64,000 bases of DNA, taken from assembly GCF_044647545.1 (NCBI RefSeq), contig NZ_CP172818.1; one strand, written 5' to 3'. Positions 31,777 through 61,580 of the stretch are shown piece after piece (the first letter of the stretch is position 1; every line of letters begins with the position of its first letter). Source of the stretch: Escherichia coli (GTDB taxonomy: Bacteria; Pseudomonadota; Gammaproteobacteria; Enterobacterales; Enterobacteriaceae). Below the pieces are notes generated by a model that worked only from the letters and a program-made list of their open reading frames with translations, did no database searches and was not told where the DNA came from. The position numbers and the translations under genes were made by a program.

Positions 31777-33318
<1,542 letters not shown>

Positions 33319-33386
33319 CCTTAAAGAAGCGTACTTTGCAGTGCTCACACAGATTGTCTGATGAAAATGAGCAGTAAAACCTCTAC

Positions 33387-33463
<77 letters not shown>

Positions 33464-33505
33464 AATTTGCACCGCAAATTTGAAGAGGTTTTAACTACAT
33501 GTTAT

Positions 33506-33581
33506 GGGGCTATAGCTCAGCTGGGAGAGCGCCTGCTTTGCACGCAGGAGGTCTGCGGTTCGATCCCGCATAGCTCCACCA
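33506..33581 (+). tRNA. alaV: tRNA-Ala (TGC)
   Basis: GGGGCTATAGCTCAGCTGGG...CTCCACCA, 76 nt. Confidence 0.95.
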
Positions 33582-33765
33582 TCTCTGTAGTGATTAAATA
33601 AAAAATACTTCAGAGTGTACCTGCAAAGGTTCACTGCGAAGTTTTGCTCTTTAAAAATCTGGATCAAGCTGAAAATTGAAACACTGAATAGCCGAAAGTT
33701 ATTCGTGAGTCTCTCAAATTTTCGCAACACGATGATGAATCGAAAGAAACATCTTCGGGTTGTGA

Positions 33766-36669
<2,904 letters not shown>

Positions 36670-36768
36670 ACAACGCCGAAGGTGTTTTGGCGGAAGAGAC
36701 ATCGACAAGTAAGCTTGATACAGATTAAATCGACAGGTCAGAACAGGACGTGTTGATAAAACAGAATT

Positions 36769-36888
36769 TGCCTGGCGGCCGTAGCGCGGTGGTCCCACCT
36801 GACCCCATGCCGAACTCAGAAGTGAAACGCCGTAGCGCCGATGGTAGTGTGGGGTCTCCCCATGCGAGAGTAGGGAACTGCCAGGCAT
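36769..36888 (+). rRNA. rrfH: 5S ribosomal RNA
   Basis: TGCCTGGCGGCCGTAGCGCGG ... AACTGCCAGGCAT; 120 nt. Confidence 0.97.
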
Positions 36889-36940
36889 CAAATTAAGCAG
36901 TAAGCCGGTCATAAAACCGGTGGTTGTAAAAGAATTCGGT

Positions 36941-37017
36941 GGAGCGGTAGTTCAGTCGGTTAGAATACCTGCCTGTCACGCAGGGGGTCGCGGGTTCGAG
37001 TCCCGTCCGTTCCGCCA
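36941..37017 (+). tRNA. aspU: tRNA-Asp (GTC)
   Basis: GGAGCGGTAGTTCAGTCGGTTAGAATACC...TCCGCCA, 77 nt, distal to 5S. Confidence 0.95.
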
Positions 37018-44991: not shown

Positions 44992-45068
44992 GGAGCGGTA
45001 GTTCAGTCGGTTAGAATACCTGCCTGTCACGCAGGGGGTCGCGGGTTCGAGTCCCGTCCGTTCCGCCA
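44992..45068 (+). tRNA. aspV: tRNA-Asp (GTC)
   Basis: Identical in sequence to the aspU copy at 36941-37017. Confidence 0.95.
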
Positions 45069-53924: not shown

Positions 53925-54203
53925 TTTACCCAAATAGCGCCGCGTGAGTTCCAGTTCTCTCAAATCGTAAAAGTTTATCGGTAAGTTTGTAAATCAGGAT
54001 CCAGTCCGGTTCGACATGAGCATCGCGATAACCTTTCCATGAACCTTGCAGCGGGTGGTCTTTATAAACAGCTGGAAGCAGTAAAGTATTATTGATAAGA
54101 GCGTCATAAGATATTTCAATTTATTCATATCCTTATGACGCTTTTGTGCAAGTTTTACATCCTTTGAAAATTGTCCCGAGTATTCAATATCCCTTTGAAT
54201 CAT
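53925..54203 (-). pseudogene. yafQ: YafQ mRNA-interferase toxin, frameshifted
   Basis: First 36 codons from ATG at 54203 match YafQ; frame breaks near 54094-54096; the +1 frame continues with ...YKDHPLQGSWKGYRDAHVEPDWILIYKL...FERTGTHAALFG to 53925. Confidence 0.8.
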
Positions 54204-54205
54204 AT

Positions 54206-54466
54206 TTAAATTCCTAATTTATCAAATAAATCATCGGCGTCTTTGGCCTTATGAATACCAACGCCAGCTTCGCTGTTTTTGATTGATTGAATAGTTAATT
54301 GATTAGGCTCGCGTAAATCAAACGGCAATGCCTTTTCACGCGCGACCTTTGTGAGGGTTATGCGAACCAGGTCAGAGATGGTCAGCCCCATCCCGGCCAG
54401 TACGTCCGCCGCCTGATTCTTCAGATCTTCATCGATTCGGGCGCGAACAAACGCGTTAGCAGCCAT
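54206..54466 (-). CDS. dinJ: DinJ antitoxin
   Basis: 86-aa ORF MAANAFVRARIDEDLKNQAADVLAGMGLTISD; immediately upstream of yafQ. Confidence 0.92.
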   Translation of the reverse strand: MAANAFVRARIDEDLKNQAADVLAGMGLTISDLVRITLTKVAREKALPFDLREPNQLTIQSIKNSEAGVGIHKAKDADDLFDKLGI

Positions 54467-54482
54467 TGGGATATCTCCTGTG

Positions 54483-54498
54483 CTGTATATTTATTCAG
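54483..54498 (-). promoter_or_regulatory. LexA-like box in dinJ promoter region
   Basis: CTGTATATTTATTCAG, close to CTGT-N8-ACAG. Confidence 0.5.
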
Positions 54499-54675
54499 CT
54501 TGAATTGTAGCTCAAATGAGCAACAGCGACAATCCATGAGTAATTTAATAAACGGATGTTTTTACATAATTAACTGAAATATATTTATTAATTTTATAAT
54601 AATGGTTTATTAAGTTTGTTCAGGTACGGGCCGGGATACACTGCAACATCAATGCATGACCAGCCATTATTGAGA

Positions 54676-55425
54676 ATGTCTTTGCCGTCGATTCCCTCTT
54701 TTGTGTTGTCGGGATTACTGTTGCTTTGCTTGCCGTTTTCTTCATTTGCCAGCGCCACCACATCACATATCTCTTTCAGCTACGCCGCCCGCCAGCGGAT
54801 GCAAAACCGTGCGCGTTTATTAAAACAGTACCAAACCCATCTGAAAAAACAGGCCAGCTATATTGTGGAAGGCAATGCCGAAAGCAGAAGGGCGCTACGC
54901 CAGCACAACCGGGAGCAGATAAAACAGCATCCAGAATGGTTTCCTGCGCCGCTCAAGGCGAGTGACAGACGCTGGCAGGCGCTGGCGGAAAACAACCACT
55001 TTTTAAGCAGCGATCACCTGCATAACATCACCGAAGTGGCGATTCACCGCCTGGAGCAGCAGCTTGGCAAGCCTTATGTCTGGGGCGGCACGCGGCCCGA
55101 TAAAGGCTTCGACTGTAGCGGGTTGGTTTTTTATGCCTACAACAAGATCCTTGAGGCGAAGCTCCCGCGCACAGCCAATGAGATGTATCACTACCATCGG
55201 GCAACGATTGTGGCGAACAACGACCTGCGCCGGGGAGATTTGCTGTTTTTCCATATTCACAGCCGCGAGATAGCCGATCATATGGGGGTGTATCTGGGAG
55301 ACGGTCAGTTTATCGAGTCACCACGTACCGGCGAAACCATTCGGATAAGCCGGTTAGCTGAACCTTTCTGGCAGGATCATTTTTTAGGCGCGCGGCGGAT
55401 TTTGACGGAAGAGACGATTTTGTAG
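54676..55425 (+). CDS. yafL: NlpC/P60-family putative peptidoglycan endopeptidase
   Basis: 249 aa from MSLPSIPSFVLSG; signal peptide; conserved Cys (DCSGLV) and His. Confidence 0.85.
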   Translation: MSLPSIPSFVLSGLLLLCLPFSSFASATTSHISFSYAARQRMQNRARLLKQYQTHLKKQASYIVEGNAESRRALRQHNREQIKQHPEWFPAPLKASDRRWQALAENNHFLSSDHLHNITEVAIHRLEQQLGKPYVWGGTRPDKGFDCSGLVFYAYNKILEAKLPRTANEMYHYHRATIVANNDLRRGDLLFFHIHSREIADHMGVYLGDGQFIESPRTGETIRISRLAEPFWQDHFLGARRILTEETIL

Positions 55426-57182
55426 GCAGGGATCTCCCCCACAACACTCAACGCCCCCATAATCTTCAACTCCAGCTCGTCCGGCACTTCGTTATACGAC
55501 AGCACATGCAGCCCCGGCGCAAACAATCTCGCATAGCGCGCCAGCAAAGGGCGCAACTGCGGTGGCACCAGCAGCACAGGGTCTTTCCCCGCCGCTTTCA
55601 TCTGCTCCTTCACCTGCGGCATCGTACTCTGGAACTGGTTGAGCATATTCGGGTCTACCGGCACGCTGTCGAGCATCACTTTGCCGGCCTGTTGCGCCTG
55701 ATTCACCACGTTGGTCAGCAGATTTTCCAGCTCATTATTCAGCGTATACACCGTCAGCTCCTGCTTGCGAACGAACGGATGGGTAATGCTGCGCCGCAGC
55801 GCCAGGCGCACATCTGCCGCCAGCAGAATATGATCTTTGGTCACCGCACTACTGGCGACCAGCACGGTGGCGATGGTGACGATATCGCGCAGGGAAACGC
55901 CTTCAGTCAGCAGCGCCCGGTACACTTTCAGCAACTGGCTGTAATTCAGCGCCGCGCTCAAATCCTCCGCCAGTCGCGGTGCCATCGACGACAGGCGGTT
56001 ATGCAACTGCGTAATATCGTCATAGTTAAATAAATCAGGAATATAGCTGCGCACAATCTTATTCACATGCGTGGCAATTACGCTGGCGCTGTCGATCACC
56101 TGATACCCCATATTCAGCGCCTTCGCTTTCTGCGCAGGCTGAATCCAGGTGACCGGCATCCCATATGCCGGGTCATTCCCCAGTACGCCGTCAATCTCGC
56201 CGTAGGTTTCGCTGGAGGGCAGGGCCATCAGTTTATCCGCCGGAATATCCGCTTCATCAGCCTTAATGCCGTTGATGAAAATGGCGTACTGGCTGGGCTT
56301 GAGACGGAAGTTTTCCCGAATACGGATCTCCGGCAGCAGCACGCCGTTACCGTCGGATATCACCTGCCGCACGCCGCGAATCCGCTGGGTGAGCGGGTTC
56401 CCCTGCGCTTTGTCCACCAGCGCCACCAGCTTGTAGCCGAGGCTTAAGCTGATGGGCTCGATCAGCGGAATGGTTTCCCAACTGACCTGTTGCTCGCTGG
56501 TTTCGGTGATGGTTCGGGTCAGCGTTTCGAGGCTTTTCTCCTCCGCCTCCGCCGCCTGCGGGCGTTTGCTCATCCGCCAGCCGGTAAAGCCAAGCAGGGC
56601 GCTGAACAGCAAAAATGGCAGATGCGGCATCCCCGGCACCACCGCCAGCACAAACATGATCCCGGTGGCGGTGTAGAGCACCGACGGACTTGCCAGCAGC
56701 TGGTGGCGCACGTCATGGGCGATATCGCCGTTGTCGCTGACGCGGGTGACGATAATTGCCGCCGCGGTGGAGAGCAGCAGGGACGGGATCTGCGCCACCA
56801 GCCCGTCGCCGATAGTCATCAGCACATATTGCTGGAAGGCGGCGTCGGCGCTCAGGTTGTATTTGAAGATCCCGATACAGACGCCGCCGATCAGGTTGAT
56901 CGCCAGAATCATCATCCCGGCGATGGCATCGCCGCGCACAAACTTCGATGCCCCGTCCATTGCGCCGTAGAAATCGGCCTCGCTGGCAACATCTTTACGC
57001 CGGGTTTGTGCCTGCGCCTGGTTGATCAATCCGGCGTTAAGATCGGCGTCAATCGCCATCTGTTTACCGGGCATCGCGTCCAGGGTAAAGCGGGCAGAAA
57101 CCTCGGAAATACGCTCGGCCCCTTTGGTGACGACGATAAAGTTGATTGTCAACAGCGTCAGTAAATCCGAGCGTGAAAGCAT
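55377..57182 (-). pseudogene. lfhA: FlhA-like flagellar export protein remnant (Flag-2 cluster), 5'-truncated
   Basis: About 600-aa ORF with FlhA-family similarity (…FVRGDAIAG…, C-terminal cytoplasmic domain) lacking the N-terminal TM region and a credible start. Confidence 0.8.
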
Positions 57183-57912
57183 TATCGCCGCGCTACACGG
57201 GCAGTCGATTTTTAACGGTGGCGGGCTGTCGCCGTTAAATAAAATCAGCCCGTCTCATCCGTCAAAACCTGCCACCGTGGCAGTGCCGGAAGAGACGGAG
57301 AAAAAAGCGCGCGACGTCAACGAGAAAACGGCGCTGCTGAAGAAGAAATCCGCCACCGAGCTTGGCGAGCTGGCGACCAGTATCAATACCATCGCCCGTG
57401 ATGCGCATATGGAAGCGAATCTGGAGATGGAGATTGTTCCCCAGGGATTACGCGTGCTGATTAAAGACGACCAGAACCGCAATATGTTCGAACGCGGCAG
57501 CGCACAGATTATGCCGTTCTTTAAAACTTTGCTGGTGGAGCTTGCGCCAGTGTTCGACTCGCTCGATAACAAAATTATTATTACCGGGCATACCGATGCG
57601 ATGGCCTACAAAAACAATATCTACAATAACTGGAACCTTTCGGGTGACCGCGCGCTTTCGGCTCGTCGGGCGCTGGAAGAGGCAGGAATGCCGGAAGATA
57701 AAGTGATGCAGGTGAGCGCAATGGCGGACCAGATGCTGCTGGACGCGAAAAATCCGCAAAGCGCGGGCAACCGGCGCATTGAGATTATGGTGCTGACTAA
57801 AAGCGCGTCCGATACGCTGTATCAATACTTTGGTCAGCATGGGGATAAAGTGGTGCAGCCGCTGGTGCAAAAGCTGGATAAGCAGCAGGTGCTTTCACAG
57901 CGAACGCGTTAA
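57157..57912 (+). pseudogene. lafU: MotB/OmpA-like flagellar motor protein remnant (Flag-2 cluster), 5'-truncated
   Basis: C-terminal OmpA-like domain (NWNLSGDRALSARRALEEAG...NRRIEIMVL); no N-terminal TM segment or start codon; 5' boundary approximate. Confidence 0.7.
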
Positions 57913-57948
57913 ATGCTGAATCTTTACGCATTTCTCAAACTCTGAAAT

Positions 57949-57968
57949 CACTGTATACTTTACCAGTG
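57949..57968 (+). promoter_or_regulatory. LexA operator (SOS box) of dinB
   Basis: CACTGTATACTTTACCAGTG about 15 nt upstream of the dinB start. Confidence 0.8.
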
Positions 57969-57982
57969 TTGAGAGGTGAGCA

Positions 57983-59038
57983 ATGCGTAAAATCATTCAT
58001 GTGGATATGGACTGCTTTTTCGCAGCGGTGGAGATGCGCGACAATCCCGCCCTGCGCGATATCCCTATTGCTATTGGCGGCAGCCGCGAACGTCGGGGGG
58101 TGATCAGCACCGCCAATTATCCCGCGCGTAAATTTGGCGTACGCAGCGCTATGCCGACAGGGATGGCGCTCAAATTATGCCCACATCTCACGCTGCTTCC
58201 AGGGCGCTTTGACGCCTACAAAGAAGCCTCAAATCATATCCGCGAAATTTTCTCGCGCTATACCTCGCGCATTGAACCGTTATCACTGGATGAAGCCTAT
58301 CTCGACGTCACCGATAGTGTGCATTGCCACGGTTCTGCGACCCTCATCGCCCAGGAAATCCGTCAGACGATCTTTAACGAGCTGCAACTGACGGCATCTG
58401 CGGGCGTTGCGCCGGTAAAGTTTCTCGCCAAAATTGCTTCCGACATGAATAAACCCAACGGTCAGTTTGTGATTACGCCGGCAGAAGTTCCGGCATTTCT
58501 GCAAACCTTACCGCTGGCAAAAATTCCCGGCGTCGGCAAAGTCTCGGCGGCAAAACTGGAAGCGATGGGGCTGCGGACCTGCGGTGATGTGCAAAAGTGT
58601 GATCTGGTGACTCTGCTCAAACGTTTTGGCAAATTTGGCCGCATTTTGTGGGAGCGTAGTCAGGGGATTGACGAGCGCGACGTTAACAGCGAGCGGTTGC
58701 GAAAATCCGTCGGCGTGGAACGCACGATGGCGGAAGATATTCATCACTGGTCTGAATGTGAAGCGATTATCGAGCTGCTGTATCCTGAACTTGAACGCCG
58801 TCTGGCAAAGGTAAAACCTGATTTACTGATTGCTCGCCAGGGGGTGAAATTAAAGTTCGACGATTTTCAGCAAACTACTCAGGAGCACGTCTGGCCGCGG
58901 CTGAATAAAGCTGATCTGATCGCCACCGCGCGTAAAACCTGGGATGAACGTCGCGGCGGGCGCGGTGTGCGACTGGTGGGGCTGCATGTGACGTTGCTTG
59001 ACCCTCAAATGGAAAGACAACTGGTGCTGGGATTATGA
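57983..59038 (+). CDS. dinB: DNA polymerase IV (Y-family translesion polymerase)
   Basis: 351-aa [25 protein letters not shown]. Confidence 0.95.
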
Positions 59039-59089
59039 TGTATACTATTATGTATATTCTGATGTTCATTATTATGAGGGGATCACTGT

Positions 59090-59383
59090 ATGCATCGAAT
59101 TCTCGCTGAAAAATCGGTCAATATCACTGAGTTACGTAAAAACCCAGCTAAATACTTTATTGATCAACCGGTTGCGGTTCTTTCTAATAATCGCCCCGCA
59201 GGATATCTCTTAAGTGCCAGCGCATTTGAAGCGTTAATGGACATGCTTGCTGAACAAGAGGAGAAAAAACTGGTTAAGGCGCGCTTCCGTCCGAGTGCCG
59301 CAAGATTAGAGGAAATTACACGCCGCGCTGAACAATATCTTAATGATATGACGGATGATGATTTCAATGACTTTAAGGAATAA
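59090..59383 (+). CDS. yafN: YafN antitoxin
   Basis: 97-aa ORF; Phd/YefM-like; precedes yafO. Confidence 0.88.
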   Translation: MHRILAEKSVNITELRKNPAKYFIDQPVAVLSNNRPAGYLLSASAFEALMDMLAEQEEKKLVKARFRPSAARLEEITRRAEQYLNDMTDDDFNDFKE

Positions 59384-59385
59384 GG

Positions 59386-59784
59386 ATGCGGGTATTCAAA
59401 ACAAAACTTATTCGCCTGCAACTTACAGCAGAGGAACTTGATGCGTTAACAGCGGATTTTATTTCCTATAAGCGTGACGGTGTTTTGCCAGATATATTTG
59501 GTCGCGATGCACTCTACGACGACTCGTTTACCTGGCCATTAATCAAATTTGAGCGAGTTGCTCATATTCATCTGGCAAATGTGAATAATCCATTTCCGCC
59601 ACAGTTGCGCCAATTCAGCAGAACGAATGACGAAGCGCATTTGGTATATTGTCAGGGTGCGTTTGATGAGCAAGCATGGTTGCTCATTGCCATTCTGAAA
59701 CCTGAACCTCATAAACTGGCTCGAGATAACAACCAAATGCATAAAATTGGGAAAATGGCAGAAGCGTTTCGCATGCGTTTTTGA
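59386..59784 (+). CDS. yafO: YafO ribosome-dependent mRNA interferase toxin
   Basis: 132-aa ORF MRVFKTKLIRLQLTAEELDALTADF. Confidence 0.88.
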   Translation: MRVFKTKLIRLQLTAEELDALTADFISYKRDGVLPDIFGRDALYDDSFTWPLIKFERVAHIHLANVNNPFPPQLRQFSRTNDEAHLVYCQGAFDEQAWLLIAILKPEPHKLARDNNQMHKIGKMAEAFRMRF

Positions 59785-59793
59785 ATTTATATT

Positions 59794-60246
59794 ATGAATA
59801 ACATACAAATAAGAAACTATCAGCCTGGCGATTTTCAGCAACTATGCGCTATTTTCCTTAGAGCGGTTACGATGACCGCCAGTCAGCATTATTCACCACA
59901 ACAAATTGCCGCCTGGGCGCAGATTGACGAATCTCGCTGGAAGGAGAAACTCGCGAAATCACAAGTGCGGGTTGCAGTTATTAATGCACAACCGGTTGGT
60001 TTTATTACCCGCATTGAACATTATATCGATATGTTATTTGTTGAACCTGAATACACCCGACGCGGGGTTGCCAGCGCTTTGTTAAAACCATTGATTAAGT
60101 CTGAATCCGAACTTACGGTGGACGCCAGCATAACCGCAAAGCCCTTTTTTGAACGTTATGGTTTTCAGACAGTTAAGCAGCAGTGCGTTGAATGCCGGGG
60201 AGAGTGGTTTACTAATTTTTATATGCGATATAAACCGCAACATTAA
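59794..60246 (+). CDS. yafP: GNAT-family N-acetyltransferase
   Basis: 150-aa ORF; acetyl-CoA-binding motif RRGVASALL. Confidence 0.88.
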   Translation: MNNIQIRNYQPGDFQQLCAIFLRAVTMTASQHYSPQQIAAWAQIDESRWKEKLAKSQVRVAVINAQPVGFITRIEHYIDMLFVEPEYTRRGVASALLKPLIKSESELTVDASITAKPFFERYGFQTVKQQCVECRGEWFTNFYMRYKPQH

Positions 60247-60424
60247 ATCCAGCTTGCAATGAAAATAACGCCCGCCTAGTATGTGTGCGTTTTCTTATTC
60301 CACAAACTGCAAGGAGGTAAATCATGACAAATCCTTTATCAATGACTCTTTGCAGACCTTTCCAGGATTAATTCTTTTTTTCTTGCCCTGGATTCGTCTG
60401 CCATTTCCTGATTTTTATTCATAA

Positions 60425-60691
60425 ATGGAATGGTACATGGGCAAATATATTCGTCCCTTATCCGATGCGGTATTTACCATCGCATCTGATGACCTGTGGA
60501 TCGAGAGTTTAGCGATCCAACAATTACACACCACGGCAAATTTACCCAACATGCAACGCGTAGTAGGGATGCCAGATTTACATCCCGGACGCGGCTATCC
60601 GATTGGCGCAGCGTTCTTCTCCGTAGGCCGTTTTTACCCGGCAAGACGTCGCGGTAACGGTGCTGGAAACAGAAACGGGTCGCTACTCTGA
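60425..60691 (+). pseudogene. ykfJ: RtcB-like RNA ligase N-terminal fragment
   Basis: 88-aa ORF with RtcB-type motif GMPDLHPGRGYPIGAAF, then terminates; overlaps prfH. Confidence 0.7.
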
Positions 60692-61160
60692 CACACTGCG
60701 TTCGGCGCTGATTTCTCTGGATGGCGATAACGCATGGGCTCTAAGCGAAAGCTGGTGTGGCACTATCCAGTGGATTTGTCCGAGTCCGTATCGGCCTCAT
60801 CATGGGCGCAAAAACTGGTTTCTGGGCATTGGGCGTTTTACCGCTGATGAGCAGGAACAATCCGACGCGATCCGTTATGAGACGCTGCGTTCGTCGGGGC
60901 CGGGCGGTCAACATGTCAATAAAACCGACTCGGCGGTACGCGCCACGCATCTGGCATCCGGTATTAGCGTGAAGGTTCAGTCAGAGCGCAGTCAGCATGC
61001 TAACAAACGGCTGGCGCGATTACTGATTGCCTGGAAGCTGGAACAACAGCAACAGGAAAATAGCGCGGCGCTGAAATCGCAGCGGCGAATGTTCCATCAT
61101 CAAATTGAACGTGGCAATCCGCGACGGATATTTACCGGGATGGCTTTTGTTGCTGTGTAA
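60660..61160 (+). CDS. prfH: peptide chain release factor homolog RF-H (likely N-terminally truncated)
   Basis: 166-aa ORF with GGQ motif ([20 protein letters not shown]). Confidence 0.85.
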
Positions 61161-61580
61161 TTGAAGAATGAAACTCCCGCCGTTTTCTATATGAAAGCGC
61201 GCGCAAAACGAAAGAATCTCATTTTATCTCTCTTCCCTTTTTTTGATAAATCTTTCTTGTAGAACTTCTGTTGCTTCATCGCGCCGGTTTTTGGCTTAGT
61301 TTGGCCATTCGCCCGTTTTTGATCTTTTTGGCGTCGGGTGGTAACGCCAAACTCACTTTTTCCTCTTAGGCATAATATGGTTTGTCCGCCGGGGGGCTAG
61401 TTTTGGGCGGAAAAGAGAAAAACCCTTTCCAAATTGTTTTTCGACTGCGATCTGGGTCTTTCGGTAACACTTTCCTACATAGGTATTTTTTTTTTATTTT
61501 TAAAAAAAAAAAAAATCAAAAAAAGATAGCCATTGGCTTCAAACAGAAGTCCACGCCCGCAGGCGTGGACATTATCGTAA

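Follow-up and report, generated by a model that had tools for sequence, protein, structure and literature searches.

Gene content and integrity of the dinB locus

We investigated the dinB-yafN-yafO-yafP locus in a 64,000-nt stretch of Escherichia coli contig NZ_CP172818.1 (RefSeq assembly GCF_044647545.1; hereafter the window), and found it almost certain to be the chromosomal E. coli SOS operon of that name, in its four-gene form and intact. The operon extends from 57949, the first base of a LexA box, to 60246, the last base of the yafP stop codon, an extent that the initial annotation had given exactly. All four genes lie on the plus strand. The first open reading frame, dinB (57983–59038, 351 residues), is preceded by a Shine-Dalgarno motif AGAGG at 57972–57976, and yafN (59090–59383, 97 residues), encoding a Phd/YefM-type antitoxin, by GAGGGG at 59076–59081. 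The third gene, yafO (59386–59784, 132 residues), encodes a ribosome-dependent mRNA interferase toxin, and its Shine-Dalgarno motif AAGGA (59375–59379) lies within yafN. The last gene, yafP (59794–60246, 150 residues), encodes a GNAT-family N-acetyltransferase and has no recognisable Shine-Dalgarno motif. YafN and YafO are thus encoded by adjacent, co-oriented small genes with the antitoxin gene first, and yafO is probably translationally coupled to yafN, because only 2 nt separate the two genes and the yafO Shine-Dalgarno motif sits inside yafN.

Each of the four frames was uninterrupted and matched the expected Pfam and NCBIfam equivalog models over its full length. DinB matched the equivalog NF002677 at 545 bits (cut-off 256), together with the Pfam families IMS (173 bits), IMS_HHH and IMS_C; it aligned with the solved E. 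coli DNA polymerase IV (Pol IV) structure 4ir1 at E = 3.9e-235, and retained the catalytic residues D8, D103 and E104 and the C-terminal clamp-binding motif QLVLGL. YafN matched NF007300 at 194 bits over its full length and PhdYeFM_antitox (PF02604) at 32.6 bits (cut-off 29.8), and YafO matched NF007377 at 246 bits and YafO_toxin (PF13957) at 132 bits. Searches of PDB sequences found no solved structure for YafN or YafO; in K-12, YafO was reported to act as a translation-dependent mRNA interferase, and its arrest of growth and neutralisation by YafN have been demonstrated (PMC2814082). YafP matched NF007338 at 325 bits, as well as Acetyltransf_10 (68 bits), Acetyltransf_7 and Acetyltransf_1, and its closest solved relative was 2fiw (E = 6e-18). 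The NCBIfam and RefSeq name for YafN, "type I toxin-antitoxin system antitoxin", is a misnomer, since the antitoxin is a protein and the system is of type II (Pfam PhdYeFM_antitox); it recurs in thousands of genome annotations.

The open reading frame coordinates, family models and genome comparison agree with the gene identities, order and shared orientation proposed in the initial annotation, and its view of a known, intact arrangement holds, all frames being whole and the gene order identical to that of K-12. Its assignment of yafN-yafO as a type II toxin-antitoxin pair is likewise supported by the Phd/YefM and YafO families and by the 2-nt spacing. The gaps of 3–10 nt that it had given between the genes describe the yafO-yafP interval (9 nt) and, roughly, the yafN-yafO interval (2 nt), but not the dinB-yafN interval, which is 51 nt.

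A 2,501-bp region spanning the operon was 100% identical to several complete RefSeq E. coli chromosomes, in which it is annotated as lafU-dinB-yafN-yafO-yafP, and 96.8% identical at the nucleotide level to the genome with K-12 coordinates. As in the K-12 MG1655 operon (Christensen-Dalsgaard et al. 2010, PMC2814082), the same four genes occur in the same order, with the same lengths, start and stop positions, 51/2/9-nt gaps and LexA box, and no reading frame is disrupted relative to K-12. The present operon differs from that of MG1655 in M210T and R265L in DinB, P61L and I62V in YafN, E66V in YafO and eight changes in YafP, as well as in three single-nucleotide polymorphisms (SNPs) in the dinB-yafN spacer and one (57941) in the spacer of the dinB promoter, whose sequence is otherwise the same as in K-12. 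The eight residue changes in yafP arise from 15 nucleotide differences (pN/pS 0.30), compared with two from 45 nucleotide differences in dinB (pN/pS 0.02). The divergence of the YafP protein, far above that of its operon partners, suggests relaxed or diversifying selection.

A weak LexA box at the dinB promoter

The LexA (SOS) box, CACTGTATACTTTACCAGTG, was read directly at 57949–57968 (no strand assigned), 15 nt upstream of the dinB ATG. A consensus scan also detected a promoter-like site TTCTCA-16-TATACT on the plus strand (57932–57959; 9/12 matches), with a -35-like element at 57932–57937 and a -10-like element at 57954–57959, which would act as the dinB promoter. The box covers this -10-like TATACT, the promoter assignment itself coming from the consensus scan only. 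The core CTG-N10-CAG is kept, and 13 of 20 positions match the consensus TACTGTATATATATACAGTA, leaving seven mismatches; a search of the window for the 20-nt consensus with at most three mismatches accordingly gave no match. We scored LexA sites with a symmetrised leave-one-out position-weight matrix built from 17 other published E. coli boxes. The dinB box reached 13.5 bits, equal to polB, the weakest box in the training set, and ranked third in the window. The published heterology index of the dinB box is 9.4, which places it 27th among the 30 rows of a table of classical SOS genes (PMC11228462).

The sequence score by itself would not single out the box: about 19% of first-order-Markov random 64-kb sequences contain a site scoring at least 13.5 bits. 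This score and the seven mismatches would be expected if the 20-mer resembled a LexA site only by chance and were not bound by LexA in this strain, with dinB under other inputs such as RpoS. We give that explanation almost no credence. The box matches the K-12 dinB box at every base, and the LexA dependence of the latter has been published: in K-12, dinB showed 5.4-fold induction by azidothymidine (AZT) and 6.9-fold lexA dependence (PMC11228462), and the same box is tabulated upstream of genes induced by ultraviolet light (PMC3009722). In addition, it lies exactly over the -10 element, and the 76-nt promoter region is conserved at 95% identity or more in 4,674 of the 5,426 complete E. coli genomes that made up our population set. 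The box is credible as a LexA site because of these three features, namely its position over the -10 element, its identity to a validated K-12 site and the conservation of the promoter region. We conclude that the LexA box is real but weak, being among the weakest of the classical SOS boxes. The direct read and the identity with K-12 therefore uphold a LexA box upstream of dinB as initially annotated, while the description of that box as "near-consensus" is contradicted by its 13/20 matches, its 13.5 bits and its heterology index.

Probable transcript continuity and a spacer promoter of yafNO known from K-12

Pattern scanning flagged two terminator-like hairpins within the operon, both on the plus strand. 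The hairpin at the 3′ end of yafO (59759–59783) had a folding energy of −9.1 kcal/mol (z = −0.96), and 34 of 200 shuffled sequences folded as well; the other, at 59166–59179, had z = −1.66. Both were rejected as internal terminators, since they fold no better than shuffled sequence. Between the four genes, no hairpin found by pattern scanning combined with folding exceeded shuffled controls in stability, as would be expected if transcription reads through from dinB to yafP. Downstream, 21 nt past the yafP stop codon, a modest hairpin is followed by the U-rich stretch UUUCUUAUU (60267–60291, plus strand); it was not flagged by the pattern scan, and the fold of 60240–60320 was −16 kcal/mol (z = −1.21), making it a possible, weak terminator at the operon end. 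When the whole window was scanned against Rfam, no family matched within the operon or close to it. The dinB-yafN-yafO-yafP operon was reportedly first demonstrated by McKenzie et al. in 2003. Co-transcription of the four genes is cited in PMC2814082 and PMC3105422.

The 51-nt spacer between dinB and yafN is repeat-structured. Joined to the final 7 nt of dinB, it forms an array with 12-nt periodicity on the plus strand (59032–59079), ATTATGATGTAT / ACTATTATGTAT / ATTCTGATGTTC / ATTATTATGAGG; a repeat search found three overlapping copies at 12-nt spacing, and TRF reported a period of 12 with 2.7 copies and 80% matches. The array contains the palindrome GTATAC, and the spacer region ends in the yafN Shine-Dalgarno motif GAGGGG. 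A consensus scan revealed a promoter-like TGGAAA-18-TATGAT at 59010–59039, with TATACT and TATATT further on. Compared with K-12, 48 of the 51 nt are identical, the SNPs being at 59062, 59066 and 59081. In K-12, a LexA-independent promoter of yafN-yafO (yafNO) that is repressed by YafN through autoregulation has been mapped to this spacer; its activation needs Lon, and it is induced by chloramphenicol and amino-acid starvation, not by mitomycin C (PMC2814082). The 12-nt repeat units may be the YafN operator. A second LexA box at the yafNO promoter, suggested in the literature, was considered and rejected: the best matrix score in 59001–59119 was −3.1 bits, and this negative score agrees with the published SOS-unresponsiveness of the promoter, so the site was discarded as a functional LexA site.

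The presence of this promoter raises the question of whether yafN-yafO, with or without yafP, is in practice a separate unit driven from the spacer, to which read-through from the dinB promoter contributes little. The active, YafN-autoregulated K-12 promoter just upstream of yafN, with its strong response to chloramphenicol and amino-acid starvation (PMC2814082), fits such a unit, as do the repeat-structured spacer with its promoter-like hexamers and the gain or loss of yafNO independently of dinB and yafP across strains. Its weakness lies in the SOS response itself: induction of yafNO by SOS depends entirely on the dinB promoter, the mitomycin C induction of yafNO mRNA in K-12 being lost when that promoter is deleted (PMC2814082). 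Moreover, no terminator lies between dinB and yafN, yafP has no upstream promoter of its own above chance, apart from one 9/12 site at 59768–59795, and yafP is SOS-induced in strains that have only dinB and yafP (PMC3105422). We therefore consider a practically separate yafNO unit very improbable, and favour a single SOS operon with an additional promoter inside it.

The promoter-deletion result also bears out the initial proposal that the toxin-antitoxin pair is under DNA-damage control (PMC2814082). That proposal had named a strong terminator or independent promoters separating dinB from yafNOP as evidence that would speak against it. No strong terminator was found. K-12 does have an independent promoter, but it is unresponsive to SOS and does not interrupt co-transcription from the dinB promoter, and it leaves SOS control unrefuted because damage induces the pair by way of the dinB promoter.

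Distribution of four-gene and two-gene forms

To place the four-gene form in its population context, we used the full 2.5-kb region as a query against the complete genomes. It was covered at 80% or more in 2,835 genomes; most of the remainder aligned as two pieces with 70% coverage, and their annotation lists dinB-yafP only. The dinB-yafN junction was present in 2,838 genomes (52%). This polymorphism is the one described by Gutierrez et al. (2011), whose figures were 60% four-gene strains and 40% two-gene strains, the latter with an ATGA overlap (PMC3105422). The two-gene dinB-yafP operon, exemplified by E. coli CFT073 and found in about half of strains (PMC3105422), shares the dinB promoter, LexA box, dinB and yafP with the operon described here. 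It differs in the loss of 759 bp comprising the spacer, yafN and yafO, so that its dinB stop codon overlaps the yafP start codon (ATGA).

The end points of this deletion could be located in the window. The heptamer ATTATGA occurs twice on the plus strand, the left copy at 59032–59038, where it holds the dinB stop codon and lies inside the first 12-nt repeat unit, and the right copy at 59791–59797, where it holds the yafP start codon. The two copies are 759 bp apart and are the end points of the deletion that gives the dinB-yafP form. Strain ZLWT, which has the two-gene form, shows GGGATTATGAATAAC at the junction, and its two BLAST pieces overlap by 7 nt, which are ATTATGA. The microhomology is 7 nt here, compared with the published 4-nt ATGA.

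A rather speculative proposal, to which we assign a low likelihood, is that the spacer repeats are the YafN operator and at the same time supply the ATTATGA microhomology for precise, possibly recurrent excision of yafNO, which would always restore a translationally coupled dinB-yafP fusion. The converse reading is an ancestral overlap of dinB and yafP into which yafNO came as a cassette bordered by a 7-nt duplication. Close copies of YafO in the plasmid collection came from records of E. coli or Shigella; true homologues on plasmids, in Klebsiella and Enterobacter, were only 32–36% identical, and the collection gave no sign of recent plasmid exchange of yafNO.

Neighbouring loci

A second toxin-antitoxin locus, dinJ-yafQ, lies on the minus strand at 53994–54500, 3.5 kb upstream of the dinB operon and in the same window. 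Like yafNO, it is a small antitoxin-toxin pair, and it has a LexA box at its own promoter. This box, TGCTGTATATTTATTCAGCT (54481–54500, 15 nt upstream of the dinJ ATG), is the top-scoring LexA-matrix site of the window and is much stronger than that of dinB (19.7 vs 13.5 bits); it is placed directly at the toxin-antitoxin promoter rather than before a polymerase gene. The yafQ frame breaks after about 36 codons, giving a 69-residue open reading frame with an unrelated tail, and RefSeq labels yafQ "frameshifted" in a genome that is identical over the yafQ stretch. Of the two toxin-antitoxin pairs associated with an SOS box, dinJ-yafQ thus has a decayed toxin gene, whereas yafO is intact.

Between this locus and dinB, at 55377–57912, lies the deletion scar of Flag-2 (lateral flagella), as in K-12: a truncated flhA-like open reading frame (55377–57182, minus strand), described by RefSeq as "incomplete, missing N-terminus", overlaps the start of lafU (plus strand, ending at 57912). 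Downstream of the operon, also as in MG1655, is an rtcB-like/prfH remnant (60425–61236), in which an 88-residue RtcB N-terminal open reading frame runs into a 166-residue PrfH C-terminal one. About 1.0 kb is missing here compared with the otherwise 99.9%-identical nearest genomes, with a 9-nt overlap at the junction (60635–60643), which K-12 shares. Contiguous matches to the junction reach no more than 95.5% identity in the 5,426 genomes, although 2,637 genomes carry a deleted form, a pattern that points to recurrent deletion or a recombinant mosaic. Between yafP and this remnant, an unannotated 15-codon open reading frame, MTNPLSMTLCRPFQD (60324–60371, plus strand), has a strong Shine-Dalgarno motif AAGGAGG and is identical in K-12; it could be a leader peptide of rtcB-prfH or a chance open reading frame.

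The only Rfam matches in the window fall at 31.8–45.1 kb, and comprise a complete rRNA operon with its tRNAs and StyR-44. The rRNA operon (31777–37014) contains 16S, two tRNAs, 23S, 5S and one tRNA, with the StyR-44 match in its spacer, and a further tRNA lies at 44992–45065; both are unrelated to the dinB operon.

Regulatory model and implications

Taken together with the published K-12 work, these observations suggest how the operon may function. In undamaged cells, a LexA dimer bound to the box over the -10 element would keep dinB transcription low. Upon DNA damage, RecA filaments would stimulate the self-cleavage of LexA, opening the promoter, and a single transcript would then run through dinB, encoding the translesion polymerase Pol IV, and on through yafN, yafO and yafP. 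Because the LexA box is weak, the basal level of Pol IV would be appreciable and its induction moderate. YafN would neutralise the toxin YafO, whose cleavage of mRNA takes place on the ribosome, and YafP would contribute an acetyltransferase activity implicated in the handling of nitroaromatic genotoxins. The spacer promoter would provide a second input to yafN-yafO, repressed by YafN and freed once YafN is degraded by Lon under translational or amino-acid stress.

The sequence anatomy of the locus, the integrity of its genes, the identity of its regulatory elements with those of K-12 and its distribution in the population were observed here directly. Several points weigh against the model as a whole. 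LexA control, co-transcription, the second promoter and the protein activities come from experiments in K-12, and would have to transfer to this strain. For co-transcription of the full set of four genes, the sources are the secondary citations mentioned above, sites scoring as well as the dinB box are found in random sequence at the frequency given above, and the three spacer SNPs could make the strength of the proximal promoter or operator differ from that in K-12.

Published work already covers the operon and its LexA box, as well as the YafNO pair, the second promoter and the four-gene/two-gene polymorphism. The value of the present analysis is as an annotation record, in which the locus is entered as intact, as the four-gene variant, with a weak SOS box and with a second, SOS-independent input to yafNO. 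The weak SOS box fits the high basal level of Pol IV. Because yafNO has a second input that is independent of SOS, a description of this toxin-antitoxin pair as purely damage-controlled is inapt.

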